Of a stretch of 11,649 nt of DNA, positions 1 to 8,276 are shown in pieces. The translations under genes were made by a program, and so were the position numbers. The stretch spans positions 1-11,649 of the IMG/VR virus record IMGVR_UViG_2737471839_000019; one strand, 5' to 3'. Numbering within the stretch: the stretch's first letter is position 1; each line of letters begins with the position of its first letter. The DNA is from a virus (Duplodnaviria > Heunggongvirae > Uroviricota > Caudoviricetes). The notes under the pieces are model-generated. The model did not search any database. It saw nothing but the letters and a program-made list of their open reading frames with translations, and was not told the origin of the DNA.

Positions 1-477
1 ATGAAACTCATCAGTAACGATCTGCGCGATGGCGATAAATTGCCGCATCGTCATGTCTTTAACGGCATGGGTTACGATGGCGATAATATTTCACCGCATC
101 TGGCGTGGGATGATGTTCCTGCGGGAACGAAAAGTTTTGTTGTCACCTGCTACGACCCGGATGCGCCAACCGGCTCCGGCTGGTGGCACTGGGTAGTTGT
201 TAACTTACCCGCTGATACCCGCGTATTACCGCAAGGGTTTGGCTCTGGTCTGGTAGCAATGCCAGACGGCGTTTTGCAGACGCGTACCGACTTTGGTAAA
301 ACCGGGTACGATGGCGCAGCACCGCCGAAAGGCGAAACTCATCGCTACATTTTTACCGTTCACGCGCTGGATATAGAACGTATTGATGTCGATGAAGGTG
401 CCAGCGGCGCGATGGTCGGGTTTAACGTTCATTTCCACTCTCTGGCAAGCGCCTCGATTACTGCGATGTTTAGTTAA
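1..477 (+). CDS. ybhB: PEBP/UPF0098-family protein YbhB (host chromosomal gene flanking the lambda attachment site)
   Basis: Complete 158-aa ORF from ATG at 1 to TAA at 475-477. The sequence (MKLISNDLRDGDKLPHRHVF...YDPDAPTGSGWWHWVV...) is recognised from memory as E. coli YbhB, and the PEBP-like motif DPDAP...GxxHY is present. GC content is host-like. Confidence 0.9.
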   Translation: MKLISNDLRDGDKLPHRHVFNGMGYDGDNISPHLAWDDVPAGTKSFVVTCYDPDAPTGSGWWHWVVVNLPADTRVLPQGFGSGLVAMPDGVLQTRTDFGKTGYDGAAPPKGETHRYIFTVHALDIERIDVDEGASGAMVGFNVHFHSLASASITAMFS

Positions 478-540: not shown

Positions 541-735
541 TCTTTTTACCTTCCCGTTTCGCTCAAGTTAGTATAAAAAAGCTGAACGATAAACATAAAA
601 AACTGTAAATATCAATATGTTATGAAAGATTTAGTCTAAATAATAGACTGCATAATACTACAAAACACAACATATCCAGTCACTATGAATCAACTACTTA
701 GATGGTATTAGTGACCTGTAACAGAGCATTAGCGC
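541..735. other. Prophage-host junction attR (lambda-type: B' arm, 15-bp core, P arm with arm-type Int sites)
   Basis: The 15-bp core TTAGTATAAAAAAGC (568-582) is the reverse complement of the lambda common core GCTTTTTTATACTAA. The ybhB-side flank (557-567, ttcgctcaag) matches the attB B' arm (reverse complement CTTGAGCGAA). The phage-side flank GCTGAACGA...(583 onward) matches the lambda attP P arm as recalled. Arm-type Int sites are present: CAGTCACTATG (679-689) and TTAGTGACCTG (707-717). The central P-arm segment (about 590-660) diverges from lambda. Confidence 0.8.
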
Positions 736-770
736 AAGGTGATTTTTTGTCCTCTTGCGCTAATTTTTTG
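728..770 (+). terminator. sib/tI-like hairpin with T-run (lambda int retroregulator/terminator homologue) on the phage side of attR
   Basis: 11-bp perfect inverted repeat ATTAGCGCAAG (728-738) / CTTGCGCTAAT (754-764) with a 15-nt loop, followed by TTTTTTG (765-770). It lies about 150-190 bp from the core on the P-arm side, where lambda sib/tI lies, and the flanking sequence GCATTAGCGCAAGG matches the reverse complement of recalled lambda sequence left of attP. The T-run is on the + strand, the direction of lambda int read-through. Confidence 0.55.
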
Positions 771-903
771 TCACCGCACTGGGTTAGTTGAATTTACAAC
801 CATGCTCAGTATCTCGATAAACGCAGAGAAATGATGCAGTGGTGGGCGGACTGGCTTGATGAGAAGTTTAAAGTTAGCTCATGAAAAATGACATACCAGT
901 TTA

Positions 904-929
904 TGGTATAAGTAGATCACGTGTATACT
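904..929 (+). promoter_or_regulatory. Candidate sigma70 promoter for the acyltransferase moron (extended -10 TGGTATAAG at 904-912, or -10 TATACT at 924-929)
   Basis: AT-rich 200-bp non-coding stretch upstream of the 975 start. TGnTATAAG resembles an extended -10, and TATACT sits about 45 nt upstream of the ATG. The -35 elements are weak. Sequence inspection only. Confidence 0.2.
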
Positions 930-974
930 GTCAAGGTTCTCATTAACAATCACACAAAATAATCGGAAAATACA

Positions 975-2096
975 ATGAAACACGTTACTTCTCTTGATGG
1001 AGCTAGAGGAATTGCCGTCATAATGGTCATGTTATTTCATTCTAATATACCTTGGGCATCTTTGGGGTGGGCTGGTGTTCCATTATTCTTTTGCCTTTCG
1101 GGGTTCCTGATCACATCAATTCTTGAGGAAGACAGGAAGTATAGATTTGCCGGGTATATTAAAAAGTTTCTAATAAATAGATCGTTGAGAATATTTCCTC
1201 TATTCTATCTATACCTTGCGGTTAATTTTGTAATAGTTAAATCAATGGGAGGAGGTACGGAAGGTTATTCTTGGTTTGTCACCTACTTACAAAACTATTA
1301 CATTGGTAATAACATAACAACACCAGGAATACTTGGACACACATGGTCTCTAGCTATAGAAGAACAATTCTATTGGATTTGGCCTATTGTAATATTTTTT
1401 ATTCGCCCACCAAAGGAAGTATGTTTTTTTGTATTTCTTGTGATAATCTCACTAGCTTCTAGATATTTTATATTCAATATTTCTGGAGGTAATCCGTATA
1501 TAACTAACGTAACTCTTATCAGTTGTGTTGATATGCTTGTCCTAGGCGCTATCTTTGCTCATATAAAGGATAGCAATAAAGCACCACAAATAGCCATGTT
1601 GACATTTATAGTTGGTTCTATTGTTACTGCATATGGCGTTATAAATATTGGGATTAATAATTTTTGGCATCCAGAGCAGTGGGTTGGCAAGGGATTATAC
1701 CTATTTACATCATTAGGGATGACATTCTCATCAATTATTTGGTTCTTATATTATTCATCAGGGAAAATGACAGGCCAGCAACAGACAGCAACAGCCAGCA
1801 ACATTTTACAACTATTTATAACGACTTGTAACAAGATATTTAACTTAAAATTCCTTAGATTTACAGGAAATATAAGTTACGGCCTTTACATGTGGCACTT
1901 GCTATGTTTTTCAATAGTAAGAAAAATGTTTTCATTTGTAGGAATCACAACTGATGGATTCACTTACATAGCTGCTTCATTTATTGTATCATATGCAGTT
2001 TCAATAGCATCATTTTACTTATTTGAGAGTTTTTTCCTTCGTTTTAAAGTAAAATCTTGCAGAGAAGGCCTTATTTTAAGAAATTCAGTAAAATAA
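975..2096 (+). CDS. Acyltransferase-3 family integral membrane O-acyltransferase (Oac/OafA-like; putative O-antigen acetylase for lysogenic conversion)
   Basis: 373-aa ORF that is very hydrophobic with multiple predicted transmembrane segments. The N-terminal motif LDGARGIAVIMVMLFHS is typical of the acyltransferase-3 family (conserved R-G and H in TM1). The gene is strongly AT-rich compared with flanking phage genes. It lies between the tailspike gene and att, where Sf6 oac and P22 gtrABC lie, and is convergent with the tailspike. A putative RBS GGAAAA precedes the ATG. Confidence 0.8.
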   Translation: MKHVTSLDGARGIAVIMVMLFHSNIPWASLGWAGVPLFFCLSGFLITSILEEDRKYRFAGYIKKFLINRSLRIFPLFYLYLAVNFVIVKSMGGGTEGYSWFVTYLQNYYIGNNITTPGILGHTWSLAIEEQFYWIWPIVIFFIRPPKEVCFFVFLVIISLASRYFIFNISGGNPYITNVTLISCVDMLVLGAIFAHIKDSNKAPQIAMLTFIVGSIVTAYGVINIGINNFWHPEQWVGKGLYLFTSLGMTFSSIIWFLYYSSGKMTGQQQTATASNILQLFITTCNKIFNLKFLRFTGNISYGLYMWHLLCFSIVRKMFSFVGITTDGFTYIAASFIVSYAVSIASFYLFESFFLRFKVKSCREGLILRNSVK

Positions 2097-2104
2097 ATTA
2101 TATG

Positions 2105-2137
2105 TTCGGCATCGGTATTTTATACACTGATGCCGAA
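2105..2137. terminator. Hairpin between the convergent acyltransferase and tailspike genes (candidate bidirectional terminator)
   Basis: Inverted repeat TTCGGCATC (2105-2113) / GATGCCGAA (2129-2137) with an inner GTAT/ATAC pairing, in the 48-bp gap between the two stop codons (2096 and 2145). Flanks are A/T-rich on both sides. Confidence 0.45.
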
Positions 2138-2144
2138 ATATCAT

Positions 2145-4055
2145 TTATTCTATAGACATTCTGCTATTTGCAAAATCATAAGCATCTTGTGATTTAATGA
2201 ATTGACAAACAAAATAGTCATTTAACCTAACTACACATCCAGATGTTGTTTTCAATGTTAACTTTACTGCGCCTGATTTTACTGCTCTCCCTACTCCAAA
2301 TGTGTGTACCCATTCACCTGTAGAGGTGTATATGTTGCCAAGCTGATCTGTATCACCTGAGAACGATCCTGTAACATCACCTGATACAAGTTTAATGCTA
2401 CATCCCCAAACAACATGGTAAAACTTAGCTATGTTAGCTGGTGAAATATTCAATGATATCGTGTAACCGGCTGGAATGTTTACCTGTGCACATTTATCAG
2501 ATAACGATCCGTCAGACACGCTTGAGCCATCAACGGTGCCAGTTCCTAAAAACTGCCATGGACCATCACCTGTAAATGACTCTGAATTAAGAATTTCGCC
2601 AGTTGGCAACCTTTTAACCCTTCCTTTTATTGAAGTGCCTCTTAAAGATATATCTACGTTCTGCAATGCTCCAAAGTGTTGTATTGCTATCGACTCAACG
2701 TGAATGCTAGGACCAATGTAACCATCACAGACAACATCCCTTGCAATAATCTTGCTTGTATCATCAATCTGAATATCGTAAATACCAGTAGCGCTATCAA
2801 ATCTGCACCCTCTGGCTATTAAAGTAGAATTTATTAGTTCAATGTTATTAAAATAGCACTGCTCAGCCACCACAGAAGGCATATCAACAAGTTTAAGTTG
2901 CCTTGGCTTCTGTACCACGCCATCAATATCAACAGTTTCGTCTTTAGCTACCAGTTCAAACCAAACGTTTGAAATTACCGGTGGAACAACAGGAGCAAGG
3001 TCATTACCATTCAAATATATACCGCCACCTTCGCATTGTTCCATGATGCAGTCCTGGATTTTTATTGCATCAATTCCACCTCCTGGTGCTGGTCCTCCAA
3101 TCTTTCCATTTATATAAATGCAATATTTTTTTATTCCAGCAAAGTGGCAATTTTGCCATGAATCTGAACCTGCGTGCATATTATTTTCAGATTGCGCCTT
3201 GTGTCCGTAATTGCATTCAAGATAGCTACAATGCTTATATGTATTACCAATGTTTCCTTTTGGCTTGTAAACTCCAATATCAAGACCGTCAAAAGCAATA
3301 TCCCTAAAGTTCCATCGGCCATCAAGATTAGACGATCCAAAAGCTATGCCAATTCCTTGTGGTGTGGAAATATTTCCCTCAATAAGGAAGTTCTGCGCGT
3401 GGCGATATTGCCATAATCGCGATGATTCAGATAGTGTAATGCTTGTCTTGCCAATGTCTGGCTTAAAGATAACATTATATCCGGTACCAATGAGATTGGC
3501 GTTTCCGGAAGTGTATTCTCCAGTATATGTACCAGGAGTAATTAACAGATCGTCGCGATATCTTGTGATATCAATAGCCTCTTGTAGGTCTACGTAATTA
3601 CCGGAGTGCTTGATATCATCCAGGTTGTTATAAACAGTTCGCACACCAATGCCAACTTTCTTTGCCCCTTCGATTCCTGCGAGATCTGCTTTAAACTGTT
3701 CAAACTCTGGCCTTAGTTGGTCAGGGTCATACTTAAGCACATTAGGGAAATAGAACTGCTGAGCACCGTACGCATCATAAACAGCCATAGAATGGCCTTG
3801 CACAGTTACGAACTTGGCAATCTGTCCGTTATATACCGGGTAACCAGCAGCGTTAATGATGATTGGTTGCGAAACAGGAACGTGAGAGCCGTCTTCATTC
3901 TCTACACAAACCTGAATCTGGTTTTCAGGATTTACCGGGTCCGTGTCAATTTTACCGATATAAATTTTGCCATTGGCTACGGCTTTAAAAGAACGAGCCA
4001 TAGTGAAGAGTTGCGAAGGCATGCTTACTACAACATTGGCTGTAATGTCTGTCAT
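2145..4055 (-). CDS. Tailspike protein: P22 gp9-type N-terminal head-binding domain fused to a divergent receptor-binding domain
   Basis: 636-aa ORF. The first ~115 residues ([46 protein letters not shown]...[15 protein letters not shown]...NVLKYDPDQ) closely match the P22/Sf6 tailspike head-binding domain as recalled. The remainder has a beta-helix-like composition with no similarity to P22 that I can recall. A GGAG Shine-Dalgarno lies 8 nt upstream of the ATG. It is the last gene of the late operon, as in P22-like phages. Confidence 0.9.
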
Positions 4056-4219
4056 TTAATTTGCTCCGGACGTAGCAATGCCGGACAAGATGCAACTTGC
4101 CAAGCATTGCACTAATGTCAGTTATGGTTTGTTAATTATGAGATGAGTCTATGCAAAGAGATCTGTTGAATATTGCGTTCTACATATTTGGTTTTTGCAC
4201 GTTCCTGGTGTTTGCGAAG

Positions 4220-6217
4220 CTATTCTGACAACGCATCAGACTTGGCACCCTGCGTCATAGCGTTAATAGCCTTTTGTGCCTGCTGCATGGCTTTCTCAAA
4301 AGATGTTGATCCGCGTGGGGTGTTTGCCATTCTGAGCATTGCATTTCTGAATGGTTCGCTCTCATAGGCGCGAGTAAGAAGTCCGTAGCTTACCGCTGCG
4401 CCAGTTGTCGCCGGGTTCATTGCCGTCCCATACCCGATAATGAACGGGATGGTTTGCTGCCCTGTTGGTGTTGTTACTGCCGCTTTTGCAGCCTGCTGCG
4501 TGGATTGCAGGTAGTTTTTCAATCCTTTCAGATAAGCGGCTTCCTGACCTTTAAATGTGATGCCAGTCTGGTTTTGCAGGATGTTAAGCTGCCGAAGGAA
4601 CTGGTCAGGGGAACCACCTGATTTCTCCATCGCCTTTCCAATGATGCCATTGCGCATTTGCGCCCTGCCAACACGACCAACTGAGTTATACAGAGTCTTA
4701 ATTTCCGATTTGTTCTTGCTGAATAGCATGTTGTTGACAACTTCCGGTGTCAGATCGCCTTTCATGAGAACATTCTTCAGCCTGGTATTCTTTAGTTTCG
4801 CTGCTTCGTCAGCATAGACGGCATTGGCCTGCTGATATTTACGGAGAGTATCGTTGCCAAGATTCTGACCAATGGCACCATTGATATCGTCGGTCATTGC
4901 CTTGTAAACGCGCTGAATGGCAGCATCGGAACGGTTTGGTAACACTGGTCGTTCCCCCTTCACGTCCATTCTGAACTGGCTGCGCAGATCGCTTAATTGC
5001 TTCAAATCCAGATTTACCGGACCATCAGGACCAGCATTGCGAATAAGCTCATCACGATAGGATTGAAGTTTTGAAATCGTCTCGTTATCAGCGACCTTAC
5101 CAAGCTTCTGCAGGTTAGATATCTCAGTATCAATCTGCTGAATTGCTCGCACAGGCTGAATATTTACTCCAGCCATGGCATTCTGAACCTGCTCCAGTCG
5201 ATTACCGGCGGCACGCCGAATTCCTGATGTTTTCGCTTTAAGGCTGTCAATAACAACTGCCGGATCGTACTCGCCGAATTTATCAGCAAATCTCTGCACC
5301 AACTGACTTCTCGCTTCCTGTTGCGTTGCTCTCATTCCGCTTGTGCCAGCCAGGGGGATATTTTCTGCTGTAGTCTGCGCCATTTTCCCGACGCGGGAAG
5401 TAGGCTGTAACAGGTCTGTGGTGTGCAGAGGAACTCCTTCACGCTCTGCAAATCTGATAGCCTGCTGCGCTTCTGGCGCAATAGCACCACGAACGCCACG
5501 ATAAGCAGCACCTAATCCACGTCCGGCAGCGTTAATAGCACCGCCAGCCAACACACCAACGCCTAAATCGGTGGCGAGTGCTTCCGCATCATCTTTCGCA
5601 CTATTTGCAGCAAGTGATCCAACTGCGTTTTCTGCGAGAAGTCGTGTTGCCCCATGAGCAATTCGACCAGCAAGTGTTGGTGCCTGTGTTGCCGCTCTCT
5701 CAACGCCAGCAGGAGTGAGGTAAGGCAATGCTTCAGCAAATACCCTTCCCTCTGTCGTTTGTGGAGTCAGCGCGCCTTGCTGAAGGCCAAAGTCCTGCTC
5801 TAATCCCTGCGTTGTTACTCGTGGCGCTGGTTGATATGTACCATCACCAATACCGAGTTTACCGCCAGCCCATGCCGCCGCGCTTGTTACAGCATCGGCA
5901 ACTGATGCAGGTATGTTTGCCACGTTCACGCCAGCCTGTACCAGTCCGCGACCAGTCTCTTTTACTGCTTCGCCAAGATCAGACATAAATCCACTTTGCT
6001 GTGGTTGTTGCTGTGCTACTGGTTGCTGTGTATCAACTGGCTGCGCAGATGGCAATGGATAGGCAGCATAGAAAGCTTGCTTAGCCTGCTCTGCATTTTC
6101 TCCGGCTTGCGGGGCCACGACTTCATTGAAGTATTGCTCCTGAGCCTGCGCTTTTTGTTCTGGTGCTAACGCCTGATACTGTGGAGAGGCGATAACATCT
6201 TTCCATGCTTTAGCCAT
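4220..6217 (-). CDS. Ejection (internal virion/DNA-injection) protein, P22 gp16-like
   Basis: 665-aa ORF in the position of gene 16 (last ejection-protein gene before the tailspike). Q/A/P-rich N-terminal region and Gly/Ala-rich central region. Its start overlaps the upstream gene's stop (TAATG). Assignment is by synteny and size; homology not verified. Confidence 0.7.
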   Translation of the reverse strand: MAKAWKDVIASPQYQALAPEQKAQAQEQYFNEVVAPQAGENAEQAKQAFYAAYPLPSAQPVDTQQPVAQQQPQQSGFMSDLGEAVKETGRGLVQAGVNVANIPASVADAVTSAAAWAGGKLGIGDGTYQPAPRVTTQGLEQDFGLQQGALTPQTTEGRVFAEALPYLTPAGVERAATQAPTLAGRIAHGATRLLAENAVGSLAANSAKDDAEALATDLGVGVLAGGAINAAGRGLGAAYRGVRGAIAPEAQQAIRFAEREGVPLHTTDLLQPTSRVGKMAQTTAENIPLAGTSGMRATQQEARSQLVQRFADKFGEYDPAVVIDSLKAKTSGIRRAAGNRLEQVQNAMAGVNIQPVRAIQQIDTEISNLQKLGKVADNETISKLQSYRDELIRNAGPDGPVNLDLKQLSDLRSQFRMDVKGERPVLPNRSDAAIQRVYKAMTDDINGAIGQNLGNDTLRKYQQANAVYADEAAKLKNTRLKNVLMKGDLTPEVVNNMLFSKNKSEIKTLYNSVGRVGRAQMRNGIIGKAMEKSGGSPDQFLRQLNILQNQTGITFKGQEAAYLKGLKNYLQSTQQAAKAAVTTPTGQQTIPFIIGYGTAMNPATTGAAVSYGLLTRAYESEPFRNAMLRMANTPRGSTSFEKAMQQAQKAINAMTQGAKSDALSE

Positions 6218-7572
6218 TAATCACCCCATAGTGAAGAAAAATTACTGCTGGCTGCTGGCTGTGATACCTGTGTAGGTTGAGATTGCTGCCGCTGAGATTT
6301 ACCAACATTAACGTTATATTGCTGGTTGTAATTGTCGGTATATTGCTGAATGTCGCGCATTGATTGTTGCAGTGCTTCAGGGCTTGAGAAATCAACCTGT
6401 GGCATACCTTGAAAATACATCTTTGCTTCTGCAACGGTGTTGATACCGGATGCCCCCATGTCTCTGGCTGCTGCAATGCCCTGATTCTGCATCTTTCCTT
6501 GGATTCGCTGTGCAGCGTTGTATAGTTTCCTCTGATCACCACCAGATGCACGGCTACGAATATCTGCACCAAGAGCAGGAGAACCTGAAGAGCCTGTAAT
6601 GCCAGTCATGAAGCCAAGATCGTCAATTGATGCACCAGAAATTGCATCAAGATCTTTCTTCATTGCGTAATTCTGCGCGCTTGCTGCCGATGTAGCCGGA
6701 GCGGCAATAGAGCCAGCAGGGACGCGAACCATATTCCCCTCGTTGTCGATACCTTCGTAGAACGCATTAGCCCCAGCGCCGTGAAGCTTCCCGCCTACCG
6801 TTACAGTTCTGCCATCTGCTAACTGAACTGTACGCTCATTATTCCCAACCGACCCTTTCATTGATGCTCTCTGCATCGATAAATCCTGACCGCGCATCGT
6901 GATATTCTGACCACGCGCTGTTAGCGCCTCGCCAGCCTGATTGCTGCGGATTGTCTCTGCCAGTCTGCCTCGGTCAATCTCACGACCAGCCATCTTGTCC
7001 TGAACATTGAAGTAATCAATCGGACCAAGAGCAGCCATTCCAAGGTGATCAACAAACTCACCAAATCCTGAAGGATTCTGCTGATACATCTGAGCAACGT
7101 TATTAGGGTCAACACCGACGCGAGTCAGTTCCTTGGCGTTGTTTTGCAGCCATGATTGCATTGCTTCTGGAGACGATGACGCAAGGCGTGCGCCAGCCGC
7201 TAAGGTGCCGATAGAATTACGCTGGTCTTCATCAATGAATCCCATGCCTTTACGAACGGATTCAATCTGGTCTGGATATTGAGTAGCCAACTGACGCAAA
7301 GCACCGCGATCACCAGACGCATAAGCATTAGCGTACGCCTGCTGAAATTCTTTCTGCCGCTGAGCCTGCTTTTCCTGCTTAAACACCCCTGCAATACCTG
7401 AAAGGCCTTGCAAAGCAGTCAGCCCAACATTGTTAGCGCCTGAACGCTCAATATCATTGTTCTGCCTGATAAGCTGAAGCGTATTGCCGATGTCATTTAC
7501 GCTCGGAGCGTTTGAGTTGACGCCGCCGATACCAGCCAACAATCCGCCGTTTGTTCCTTGCCAAGTAGCCAT
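6217..7572 (-). CDS. Ejection protein, P22 gp20-like
   Basis: 451-aa ORF (P22 gp20 is about 471 aa) between the gp7-like and gp16-like genes. A strong GGGG RBS lies 7 nt upstream of the ATG. Assignment is by synteny and size. Confidence 0.7.
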
Positions 7573-7581
7573 GATTACCCC

Positions 7582-8274
7582 TTAAAACAACGAGCCAAGC
7601 AATCCGATACCAGCACCAATGCCAGCGCCCCAAGGCGTTGATGTTCCCAAAAGGCTGGCAAGACCTGCACCGGCAATCGCACCAGACGTGCCACCGCTAA
7701 TTGCAGTCTGAAGACTTGATGGTTTATTGGCATTAGCAGCGGCAAGTGCTGCGCTTTGCTGTGCAATGCTGCTCATGTTGTTGGCGTACGTCTGCCCGGC
7801 GTTTGCCTGACCTTGCAGCGCACCAAGCCCAACGTTTGCCAGATTGTTGTAATTGCTCATCTGGTTTGATAACCAAGACTGACCGAGTGTCGGCGCGATC
7901 GTAGCCAGTTGATTGCTTGTGGCTGTCGAACCAAGTCCACCCGTCGCCTCCGCAGCAGCAAGACTCTGGTAACGCGCCTGACCTGCAAGGTCTTTATACT
8001 GCTGAGAGTTGTAATACTGATTAAGTGCCTGCCCCTGACCTTCTAAACTGGAAAGATTCTGCAACTGGTTAACATACTGCTCCGCAAGAGGCGTGAACGG
8101 AGCAAGGTTTTTCATGATCGTCTGCCACTGCTGATTTTGCAGGTCTGCTGCATACTTCTGAGCTTCTGCGGCATACTTTGCGCTTTTATCAGAACTTCCA
8201 CCTTTCCCACCCTTTTCAGGGCAATAAGGTTCCTCGCCGCGCAGTTTTCTGCCCAGCTTAAATGCATATAACAT
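7582..8274 (-). CDS. Ejection protein, P22 gp7-like
   Basis: 230-aa ORF (P22 gp7 is about 229 aa). The N-terminus MLYAFKLGRKLRGEEP resembles the gp7 N-terminus as recalled, and the C-terminus is Gly/Ala-rich and hydrophobic. Gene order is correct. Confidence 0.75.
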   Translation of the reverse strand: MLYAFKLGRKLRGEEPYCPEKGGKGGSSDKSAKYAAEAQKYAADLQNQQWQTIMKNLAPFTPLAEQYVNQLQNLSSLEGQGQALNQYYNSQQYKDLAGQARYQSLAAAEATGGLGSTATSNQLATIAPTLGQSWLSNQMSNYNNLANVGLGALQGQANAGQTYANNMSSIAQQSAALAAANANKPSSLQTAISGGTSGAIAGAGLASLLGTSTPWGAGIGAGIGLLGSLF

Positions 8275-8276
8275 GG

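Follow-up and report, generated by a model that had tools for sequence, protein, structure and literature searches.

The stretch of DNA analysed here, called the window, comprises the 11,649 nucleotides of a tailed-phage record (IMGVR_UViG_2737471839_000019). It opens with the host gene ybhB and a lambda-type attachment site, which are followed by the remnant of an integrase gene, by a gene for a predicted membrane acyltransferase of the acyltransferase-3 (AT3) family and, converging on the latter, by a P22-type tailspike gene (Table 1). We refer to the acyltransferase gene, which is the subject of this work, as the acetylase gene, after its predicted activity. Its coding sequence contains a 10-bp tandem repeat, and natural alleles differ in the number of repeat units, some being intact and others frameshifted. 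Together with the tailspike gene it occurs in two kinds of P22-like prophages.

Family, motifs and fold of the acetylase

An earlier note, drawn up from the letters of this DNA, had described an open reading frame (ORF) of roughly one-third GC whose 373-residue product was a polytopic membrane protein with the N-terminal signature of AT3 enzymes, and it had suggested a Pfam search and a topology prediction. We recovered the same ORF, from the same ATG, at the same coordinates. Its GC content is 0.337 (0.278 at third codon positions, GC3), against 0.499 in the late genes (positions 4056-11649) and 0.524 in ybhB. The Pfam family PF01757 (Acyl_transf_3) matches it over its full length (E = 4e-24; score 85.7 bits, cut-off 31; residues 5-345 of 373, profile positions 2-323 of 326). 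PHROG 3333, labelled 'O-acetyltransferase', matches it with E = 8e-41. NCBIfam has no model that matches the acetylase or the tailspike.

Conserved residues were read from alignments of the window protein with Oac of phage Sf6, GtrC of phage BTP1, a Uetakevirus acetylase and 9, 35 or 96 homologues. The N-terminal signature is real: R11-X10-H22 lies in the first transmembrane helix (TMH1), H22 is invariant and R11 is conserved in at least 90% of 97 homologues, so that the loss of these residues, which the earlier note had named as contrary evidence, is not seen. The segment R69-S-L-R72-I-F-P, an RXXR motif, lies at the cytoplasmic end of TMH3, with R69, R72 and P75 invariant. The R-X10-H and RXXR motifs are the defining marks of AT3 enzymes, and OafB, OafA and Oac cannot function without them (PMC9833829; PMC3467182). 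In addition, F38F39xxS42G43, W124SLxxE129E130xFY133, S301YGLY305, H308 and E351 are invariant or nearly so among 36 and 97 homologues.

An AlphaFold2 model built from 97 sequences has a predicted local distance difference test score (pLDDT) of 94.8 and a predicted template modelling score (pTM) of 0.92, with low confidence only at residues ~261-280. The fold is the ten-helix transmembrane acyltransferase (TmAT) fold. The order of the helices, the hydropathy and the Lys/Arg distribution agree with ten transmembrane helices, in a predicted topology that places both termini in the cytoplasm. The model resembles transmembrane acetyl-CoA transferases, its closest structural match being HGSNAT, an enzyme that uses acetyl-CoA. 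No AT3 protein matched the acetylase among solved structures.

The protein ends at residue 373, soon after TMH10. It has no SGNH domain and Pfam finds no second domain in it; in the alignment, the rows of BTP1 GtrC and PAS61 run ~270 residues further. By its sequence the acetylase is an 'AT3-only' enzyme, like Oac and unlike BTP1 GtrC, and it is placed in a separate AT3 clade, not as an Oac orthologue. Its nearest non-identical relatives come from Enterobacterales and are 49-58% identical; among them are the 57%-identical homologues P0006 and P0003, from E. coli and Trabulsiella. In a tblastn search of 50,697 phage records, 88 records matched, each at less than 60% identity, and none of the matches listed exceeded 36%. 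A scan of genome contigs with the clade alignment gave, among the matches listed, relatives of at most 33% identity.

A decanucleotide repeat and its natural alleles

The feature of the gene that the earlier note missed is a 10-bp repeat in its coding sequence for which both intact and frameshifted alleles exist in nature. Tandem Repeats Finder (TRF) reports a unit CAGCAACAGA of period 10, present in 2.8 copies in the window and in 8.8 copies in L001, with 94-98% match (labels L001 to L100 denote the related prophage or genome loci that were compared with the window). A set of three units spans 30 bp and codes for the decapeptide QQQTATDSNR; the gain or loss of one or two units shifts the frame. 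A harmless in-frame variable-number tandem repeat of 30 bp was considered and rejected, since the unit found by TRF is 10 bp. The in-frame alleles encode proteins of 373 (window), 376 (L002 and L092), 383 (L098-L100) and 393 residues (L001).

We simulated the gain and loss of units in silico. The simulated products stop at 278, 288 or 298 residues and end in ..QQHFTTIYNDL or ..QQQPATFYNYL. Natural proteins of 278 (n = 1), 288 (n = 3) and 298 residues (n = 4), from two clusters at 90% identity, carry exactly these tails. Each is a complete ORF on a contig of 200-700 kb, and the isolates are independent of one another. The tract could be read in 27 distinct sequences, of which 19 keep the frame and 8 have lost it; no copy number between 1.8 and 8.8 is missing. 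The identical N-terminal background of 267 residues carries six copy numbers (2.8, 3.8, 4.8, 5.8, 6.8 and 8.8); hence, the tract varies faster than its flanks. Two variants of the unit, ending in A or in C, have expanded independently. The allele of L002 and L092 has gained one unit (a 3.8-copy repeat), and a 1-bp deletion at the edge of the tract restores its frame.

The tract lies in a lineage-specific loop insertion between helices 8 and 9, in the part of the model that has low confidence, and this loop is predicted to be cytoplasmic. After a frameshift the product lacks helices 9-10 and with them SYGLY, H308 and E351, whose equivalents are critical in Oac and OafB (PMC9833829; PMC3467182). 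No repeat is found in the 54%- and 57%-identical homologues, and a DNA-pattern scan of metagenomes anchored on the tract gave no match. When the exact tailspike of the window was used as query, only 373-residue in-frame alleles were returned.

A cassette with the tailspike gene, its prophages and its hosts

The acetylase and tailspike genes form a cassette that is shared by two kinds of P22-like prophages, one with an IntS-type integrase at argW and the other with a lambda-type attachment site. In the argW/IntS prophages (L001, L002, L092 and L098-L100) the order is int(+), acetylase(+), tailspike(-), and in the window it is integrase remnant, acetylase gene, tailspike. Homology between the window and these prophages starts exactly at position 792, the first base of the remnant, and runs through the acetylase gene and the entire tailspike gene at 98-99.8% identity. 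The tailspike is collinear with the acetylase at 98-99.9% in L001, L092 and L096-L100. The lambda-site version of the cassette was found in the window and in at least six NCBI or Logan contigs. The translation of the remnant is identical to the C-terminus of IntS in L001, and the remnant is also annotated, as a partial pseudogene, in L003, a sister prophage that lacks the acetylase gene. Judging from these alignments, the integrase fragment is the scar of an exchange of integration modules, from IntS/argW to lambda-type/attB.

L003 belongs to strain P393-F10, an O109 host, and lies at the lambda site. It has the same attachment region and integrase remnant as the window, with ~20 bp in place of window positions ~877-2084, between the remnant and the tailspike terminator. 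The acetylase gene is therefore a clean 1.2-kb presence/absence cargo gene. In this respect, in its foreign GC content and in its orientation opposite to the tailspike gene, it has the moron layout that had been proposed for it. The immI region (ant, arc, mnt), between a gp16-like ejection gene and the tailspike gene, is absent from the window and from L001 and present in L003, L099 and L100 (window 4056-4219 compared with L003 8448-11596, L099 and L100). Since its presence differs between them, the same cassette sits in several mosaic backbones. The tail-needle gene product (window 8732-9580) has 282 residues and a Phage_tail_NK domain in the gene tables of L096 and L097; we take it to be of the longer, knob-bearing type of Sf6 and HK620, not of the 233-residue type of P22 gp26. 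In L002 (E. coli LF4-1, positions 7363-10123) a stub of an argW prophage remains: the tailspike gene is split by ISEc33 and IS1, the remaining phage is gone and the acetylase gene is intact.

The head-binding domain occupies the first 113 residues of the tailspike. The receptor-binding domain is 65% identical to the tail protein of the lytic phages Bp4 and PD38 and ~40% identical to fibres of the LM33_P1 type. LM33_P1 is specific for O25b. The closest receptor-binding domains of tail proteins are those of the lytic phages Bp4, PD38 and Uz-1. The GC content of this domain (window 2145-3698) is 0.396 and its GC3 is 0.30, with 0.44 in the head-binding domain and 0.50 in the late genes. As the acetylase gene and the receptor-binding domain are both low in GC, the two make up one foreign low-GC block, which fits joint travel. 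Two tailspike alleles occur in O109 hosts. One is linked to the acetylase (window, L001, L092 and L096-L100) and the other is found in P393-F10 and 19AR0254, which lack it; they are ~98% identical over residues 1-288 and ~63% over residues 289-636 (window 2145-3190 against L003 6440-7486). The two alleles may reflect recognition of different O109 variants, in a comparison of two against two genomes.

In three or more phage contexts, the gene next to that of the acetylase or a relative encodes a tailspike or fibre. For example, L008 has a 54%-identical homologue between an integrase gene and a P22-type tailspike gene with an unrelated receptor-binding domain. In L093 (IMG/VR UViG_2648501177_000012, positions 1265-4293) a 57%-identical acetylase converges on the gene of a 643-residue protein with a T7-type tail-fibre N-domain, and the pair adjoins a T7-like terminase gene and a lysozyme gene; the enzyme clade is the same and the phage type is different. 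Other relatives are not linked to such genes. One lies in an Enterobacter prophage remnant, beside a terminase gene. Another, 49% identical, is chromosomal in Rouxiella sp. S1S-2 (L004, positions 8001-9083), where glpG and glpE flank it and its surroundings contain no phage genes, hence the clade is not exclusively phage-borne.

We then turn to the hosts. The acetylase gene is present in 2 of 5,426 complete E. coli genomes, 47-1826 (broiler, USA) and LF4-1 (deer, China), and the O-antigen clusters of both are annotated with wzx and wzy of the O109 family. The O109 wzy is found in only 18 of the 5,426 genomes, and the chance that both carriers are O109 is (18 × 17)/(5,426 × 5,425), about 1e-5. 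Megablast matches to the tailspike receptor-binding domain occur in four of the 5,426 genomes, all four of them O109. Because carriers and tailspike-match genomes are all O109 and O109 is rare, the O109 O-antigen is the candidate receptor and the probable substrate: the tailspike would recognise it, and the acetylase most probably modifies it. The O109 clusters (L094 38999-39532, L095 41957-42490) end with a gene annotated as a 'serine O-acetyltransferase' and also hold a GNAT N-acetyltransferase gene. Serine O-acetyltransferases are hexapeptide-repeat enzymes. The O109 polymer may thus already carry acetyl groups encoded by its own cluster, separate from any acetylation encoded by the prophage.

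The window is anchored in the host chromosome by ybhB; bioA-ybhB lies directly upstream of the prophage in L003 and L096, which fixes the integration site. The attachment core GCTTTTTTATACTAAC is followed toward ybhB by the bacterial B' arm and in the opposite direction by a P arm like those of lambda and 434, and positions 564-866 match the attP regions of lambda, 434 and HK106 at 87-97%. The junction order P-O-B' makes it attR, as the earlier note had said. Within the P-arm homology, a hairpin followed by T6, which we take from lambda biology to be the sib/tI element, is oriented from ybhB toward the acetylase gene and would insulate the cargo gene from host read-through.

Table 1. Features of the window around the acetylase gene (coordinates in the window)
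Feature	Position	Strand	Basis
AT3-only membrane acyltransferase (acetylase) gene, predicted	975..2096	+	ATG start, 373 aa, allele in frame
Decanucleotide repeat CAGCAACAGA, 2.8 copies	1776..1803	+	TRF; part of TMH8-TMH9 loop
Tailspike gene, 636 aa, P22-type head-binding and receptor-binding domains	2145..4055	-	Head_binding (Pfam), E 3e-66
Hairpin between convergent stops, candidate bidirectional terminator common to acetylase and tailspike genes	2105..2137		RNA fold
Upstream region of acetylase gene, presumed promoter and ribosome-binding site	885..974	+	sigma-70-like matches weak; -10-like motif by eye
IntS-type integrase gene remnant, last 30 codons and stop	792..884	+	translation IYNHAQYLDKRREMMQWWADWLDEKFKVSS*
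Presumed lambda sib/tI-like hairpin, then T6	721..771	+	-26.7 kcal/mol, z -4.6; inside lambda-like P-arm homology
Lambda-type att core, GCTTTTTTATACTAAC on - strand	558..573	-	read from sequence
ybhB, host gene on bio side of lambda attachment site	1..477	+	NCBIfam NF007609 equivalog, E 1e-103

The earlier note had also bracketed the acetylase gene between a candidate promoter region and a hairpin terminator. The hairpin between the two stop codons (core stems 2105-2116 and 2126-2137) is strong: it folds at -22.7 kcal/mol on either strand, with z scores of -7.0 and -6.8 on the two strands, and none of 200 shuffles folded as well. A strict terminator scan did not list it, its loop being 9 nt long and a clean T-run being absent. 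It is not specific to the moron, since L003 keeps it at 92% identity as the tailspike terminator, without the acetylase gene, which assigns it to the phage backbone and not to the acetylase insert. Promoter-like matches between positions 450 and 2300 are not enriched (14 found against 8.6 +/- 3.2 expected from shuffles), and the two that lie upstream of the acetylase ATG (943-971 and 949-976) score only 9/12. An extended -10-like motif, TGgTATAAG, can be seen by eye at 904-912. No conserved promoter element was found in the aligned upstream regions of four members of the acetylase clade. Phase variation of gtr and oafB operates by a Dam/OxyR mechanism and is not repeat-driven. An epigenetic switch of that type was rejected for the acetylase gene, as positions 885-974 hold a single GATC.

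Proposed role, alternatives and known systems

We propose that the acetylase gene is a lysogenic-conversion gene of P22-like prophages, encoding a ten-helix, AT3-only acyltransferase of the inner membrane that probably masks the O109 O-antigen, that it is carried on a mobile cassette and that its hypermutable repeat puts it in or out of frame. We give this account as a whole a probability of about 0.6. By analogy with characterised AT3 enzymes, cytoplasmic acetyl-CoA would enter a pore whose lining includes R11, R69 and R72, and its thioester would be presented to H22 at the periplasmic face. If the enzyme is active in this way, the acetyl group would end up on the hydroxyl of a sugar in a surface glycan, most likely the O109 O-antigen, the presumed receptor of the neighbouring tailspike. 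Once acetylated, this receptor would be hidden from related phages as well as from the tailspike of the phage itself, and the O epitope would be changed; O-antigen acetylation, serotype conversion and superinfection exclusion are all plausible consequences. The acetylase and tailspike genes move as a low-GC cassette between IntS/argW prophages and prophages with a lambda-type attachment site. The repeat changes its copy number readily, and since only every third number keeps the frame, the gene is either intact or truncated in natural isolates. From this we infer reversible switching by strand slippage, of the kind known from contingency loci. A further step is to regard the gene as a second E. 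coli 'mobile contingency locus', evolved independently of neuO of prophage CUS-3 at the same position between int and tailspike, by which O109 lysogens switch O-antigen acetylation through strand slippage. On that view, in-frame alleles might also differ in activity according to how many decapeptide repeats their predicted cytoplasmic loop holds, as NeuO does with its repeat number. This step is tentative, and we hold it to be somewhat less probable than its opposite.

Several observations weigh against the switched O109-conversion account. The O109 link rests on two genomes for the acetylase and on four for the tailspike family. It bears directly on the host range of the phage and only indirectly on the substrate of the enzyme, and AT3 acceptors also include enterobacterial common antigen (ECA), peptidoglycan, capsules and Nod factors (PMC9558356). 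The promoter of the gene is a candidate only. The tract of the window is short and imperfect, with its 2.8 copies, and every contig of the lambda-attachment lineage that was read carries the same 373-residue allele. The window copy may thus be effectively locked in the intact state and is probably the most stable of the allele series. The frameshifted alleles are known at the protein level only. Finally, repeat polymorphism among isolates shows hypermutability, not rapid and reversible switching within a clone.

The alternatives concern either the reaction or the repeat. The gene could encode a genuine AT3 acetyltransferase whose acceptor is another envelope glycan, such as ECA, a group 1 or 4 capsule, colanic acid, the core of the lipopolysaccharide (LPS) or peptidoglycan. 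AT3-only enzymes do modify many glycans, and the E. coli AT3 protein WecH acetylates ECA (PMC9558356); moreover, the Rouxiella homologue has no phage linkage, and one of the PHROGs that match the tailspike is labelled with a colanic-acid-degrading activity. We nevertheless consider such an acceptor improbable. The acetylase or a relative lies beside a tailspike or fibre gene in five or more independent contexts, its position is that of Sf6 oac, and the cassette is confined to one O serogroup. ECA, LPS core, colanic acid and peptidoglycan are general in E. coli, and would not explain this restriction because they are common to the species. The window protein also lacks the SGNH domain that is present in AT3 enzymes of peptidoglycan such as OatA. 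That the group transferred is not acetyl, for example succinyl or a longer chain, seems to us very improbable. The AT3 family does include other acyltransferases, and the sequence leaves the donor unfixed, but the cited phage-borne AT3 modifiers of O-antigen are all acetyltransferases (Oac, OacB-D, GtrC of BTP1/OafB and the Oac of PhiV10; PMC9558356), and HGSNAT, the closest structural match, uses acetyl-CoA. Finally, the ORF might be a silent or non-functional passenger of the window prophage, given that no promoter rises above chance and that the tI-like terminator upstream blocks read-through from ybhB. Against this very improbable case stand the catalytic motifs, none of which is damaged, the 99-100% conservation of the ORF in many isolates and on two integration backgrounds, and the annotated promoter at the equivalent position in Sf6; the mutation that restored the frame in L002 and L092 argues for selection.

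The repeat might also be a mutational hot spot without adaptive switching, and the frameshifts a one-way decay of a dispensable prophage gene. Prophage cargo often decays, and in L002 the neighbouring tailspike gene is broken by ISEc33 and IS1. The tract lies ~72% into the gene, not at the 5' end as is typical for contingency genes, and its copy numbers are low (2-9, against 14-39 in neuO; PMC8653822). This alternative has some weight, yet we find it unlikely. Where the flanking protein sequence is identical, both frameshifted states and the whole series of copy numbers from 1.8 to 8.8 are represented, and alleles that keep the frame with one, two or three decapeptide repeats are common, which requires repeated gain or loss with the frame retained. 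One-way decay also sits badly with the independent expansion of the A- and C-ending units. The lineage that gained one unit regained its frame by a 1-bp deletion, and in L002 the gene stands intact beside a destroyed tailspike gene. Restoration of the frame where the tailspike has been lost therefore indicates selection for the intact protein.

The class of enzyme is ordinary, since receptor-masking AT3 acetylases of phages are well known in Shigella and Salmonella. In open-access text we found neither the window acetylase described, nor any phage that converts O109, nor an E. coli AT3 enzyme switched by a repeat. To our knowledge, neuO is the only other cargo gene of an E. coli prophage with repeat-driven on/off switching, and the mechanism is rare in E. 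coli. The proposed account predicts that some O109 strains carry an O-acetylated variant of the O-antigen, for which the responsible gene can be named. O109 is found in poultry, cattle and in surveys of Shiga toxin-producing E. coli, so that the matter bears on serotyping, on the prediction of phage host range and on phage therapy against O109. The locus is also a clear case of receptor-binding and receptor-masking genes inherited as one mobile unit. If the account is true, switching would let lysogen populations hedge their bets: modification would exclude O109-specific phages or change antigenicity, and its absence would preserve the antigen as it is. Two cases that arose independently in one genomic slot would point to selection for a receptor modification that can be switched, and receptor-masking enzymes turned on and off by repeats would be a recurring design of tailspike-linked prophage cargo, not a one-off.

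Among known systems, Oac (OacA) of Sf6 resembles the acetylase in kind of enzyme and in position. Both are AT3 proteins without SGNH domain, encoded by low-GC cargo of P22-like temperate phages that is placed between the integrase gene and a tailspike gene converging on it. The order in Sf6 is tailspike(+), terminator, oac(-), promoter, int(-), which matches the arrangement in the window, so that the equivalence with the oac locus suggested in the earlier note holds. The two proteins share the SG of TMH2, the R..RIFP loop and the SYG of TMH9, all critical in Oac (PMC3467182), and the expected outcome is the same, a masked tailspike receptor and a change in serotype and in sensitivity to superinfection (PMC9558356). 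They differ in sequence, with 21% identity overall and a BLASTP alignment limited to ~75-85 N-terminal residues (32% identity, E = 2e-5). They also differ in length (333 residues in Oac, in agreement with the earlier note, against 373) and in host, Oac acting on the S. flexneri O-antigen and the window protein coming from an E. coli O109 host. The window protein has the loop insertion with its frameshifting repeat, and no such repeat is seen in the alignment row of Sf6 Oac.

The closest counterpart of the repeat is neuO of CUS-3, a P22-like argW prophage of E. coli K1. NeuO is a soluble hexapeptide-repeat acetyltransferase that acts on the K1 polysialic acid. Its gene also lies between int and the gene of a tailspike, an endosialidase. 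It contains AAGACTC heptads and is full length only at copy numbers that are multiples of three, with switching demonstrated in culture (PMC8653822). In both genes the coding repeat has a unit that is not a multiple of three, and in-frame alleles differ in the number of peptide repeats (PMC8653822). The enzymes are unrelated, the window protein being a polytopic AT3 protein. The repeats differ as well: a 7-bp unit in 14-39 copies at the 5' end of neuO, against a 10-bp unit in 2-9 copies at codon ~268, in a loop, in the window gene.

OafA of Haemophilus influenzae, which switches by tetranucleotide repeats, differs from the acetylase in several ways: its gene is chromosomal, the repeat unit has four nucleotides, the organism is another one and the substrate is lipooligosaccharide (LOS), not a polymerised O-antigen. 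It is, like the acetylase, an AT3-family enzyme that acetylates a surface glycan, and its expression is phase variable; slipped-strand variation in repeats is among the subjects of two papers (PMC6479036; PMC10505976). GtrC of BTP1/OafB and OafA of Salmonella share with the acetylase an AT3 domain with R-X10-H and RXXR, and BTP1 has the order int, gtrA, gtrC and convergent tailspike, with the modification gene likewise between int and tailspike. These proteins have ~640 residues and a periplasmic SGNH domain, which the window protein lacks, and are ~26% identical to it. Acetylation by GtrC is reported to protect against the BTP1 tailspike, and Salmonella oafB is phase variable by an epigenetic route (PMC9558356). 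Kapi1, of commensal E. coli, is a P22-like argW/IntS prophage, as are L001 and L002; it uses the O-antigen as receptor, and its lysogen has an altered LPS (PMC8787464). It differs in having no AT3 gene; the small gene between its tailspike and int, hyp24, proved on testing not to be the cause, and the study leaves the converting gene unnamed (PMC8787464). By analogy, the acetylase belongs with Sf6 Oac in the kind of enzyme and role, and with neuO in its on/off architecture.

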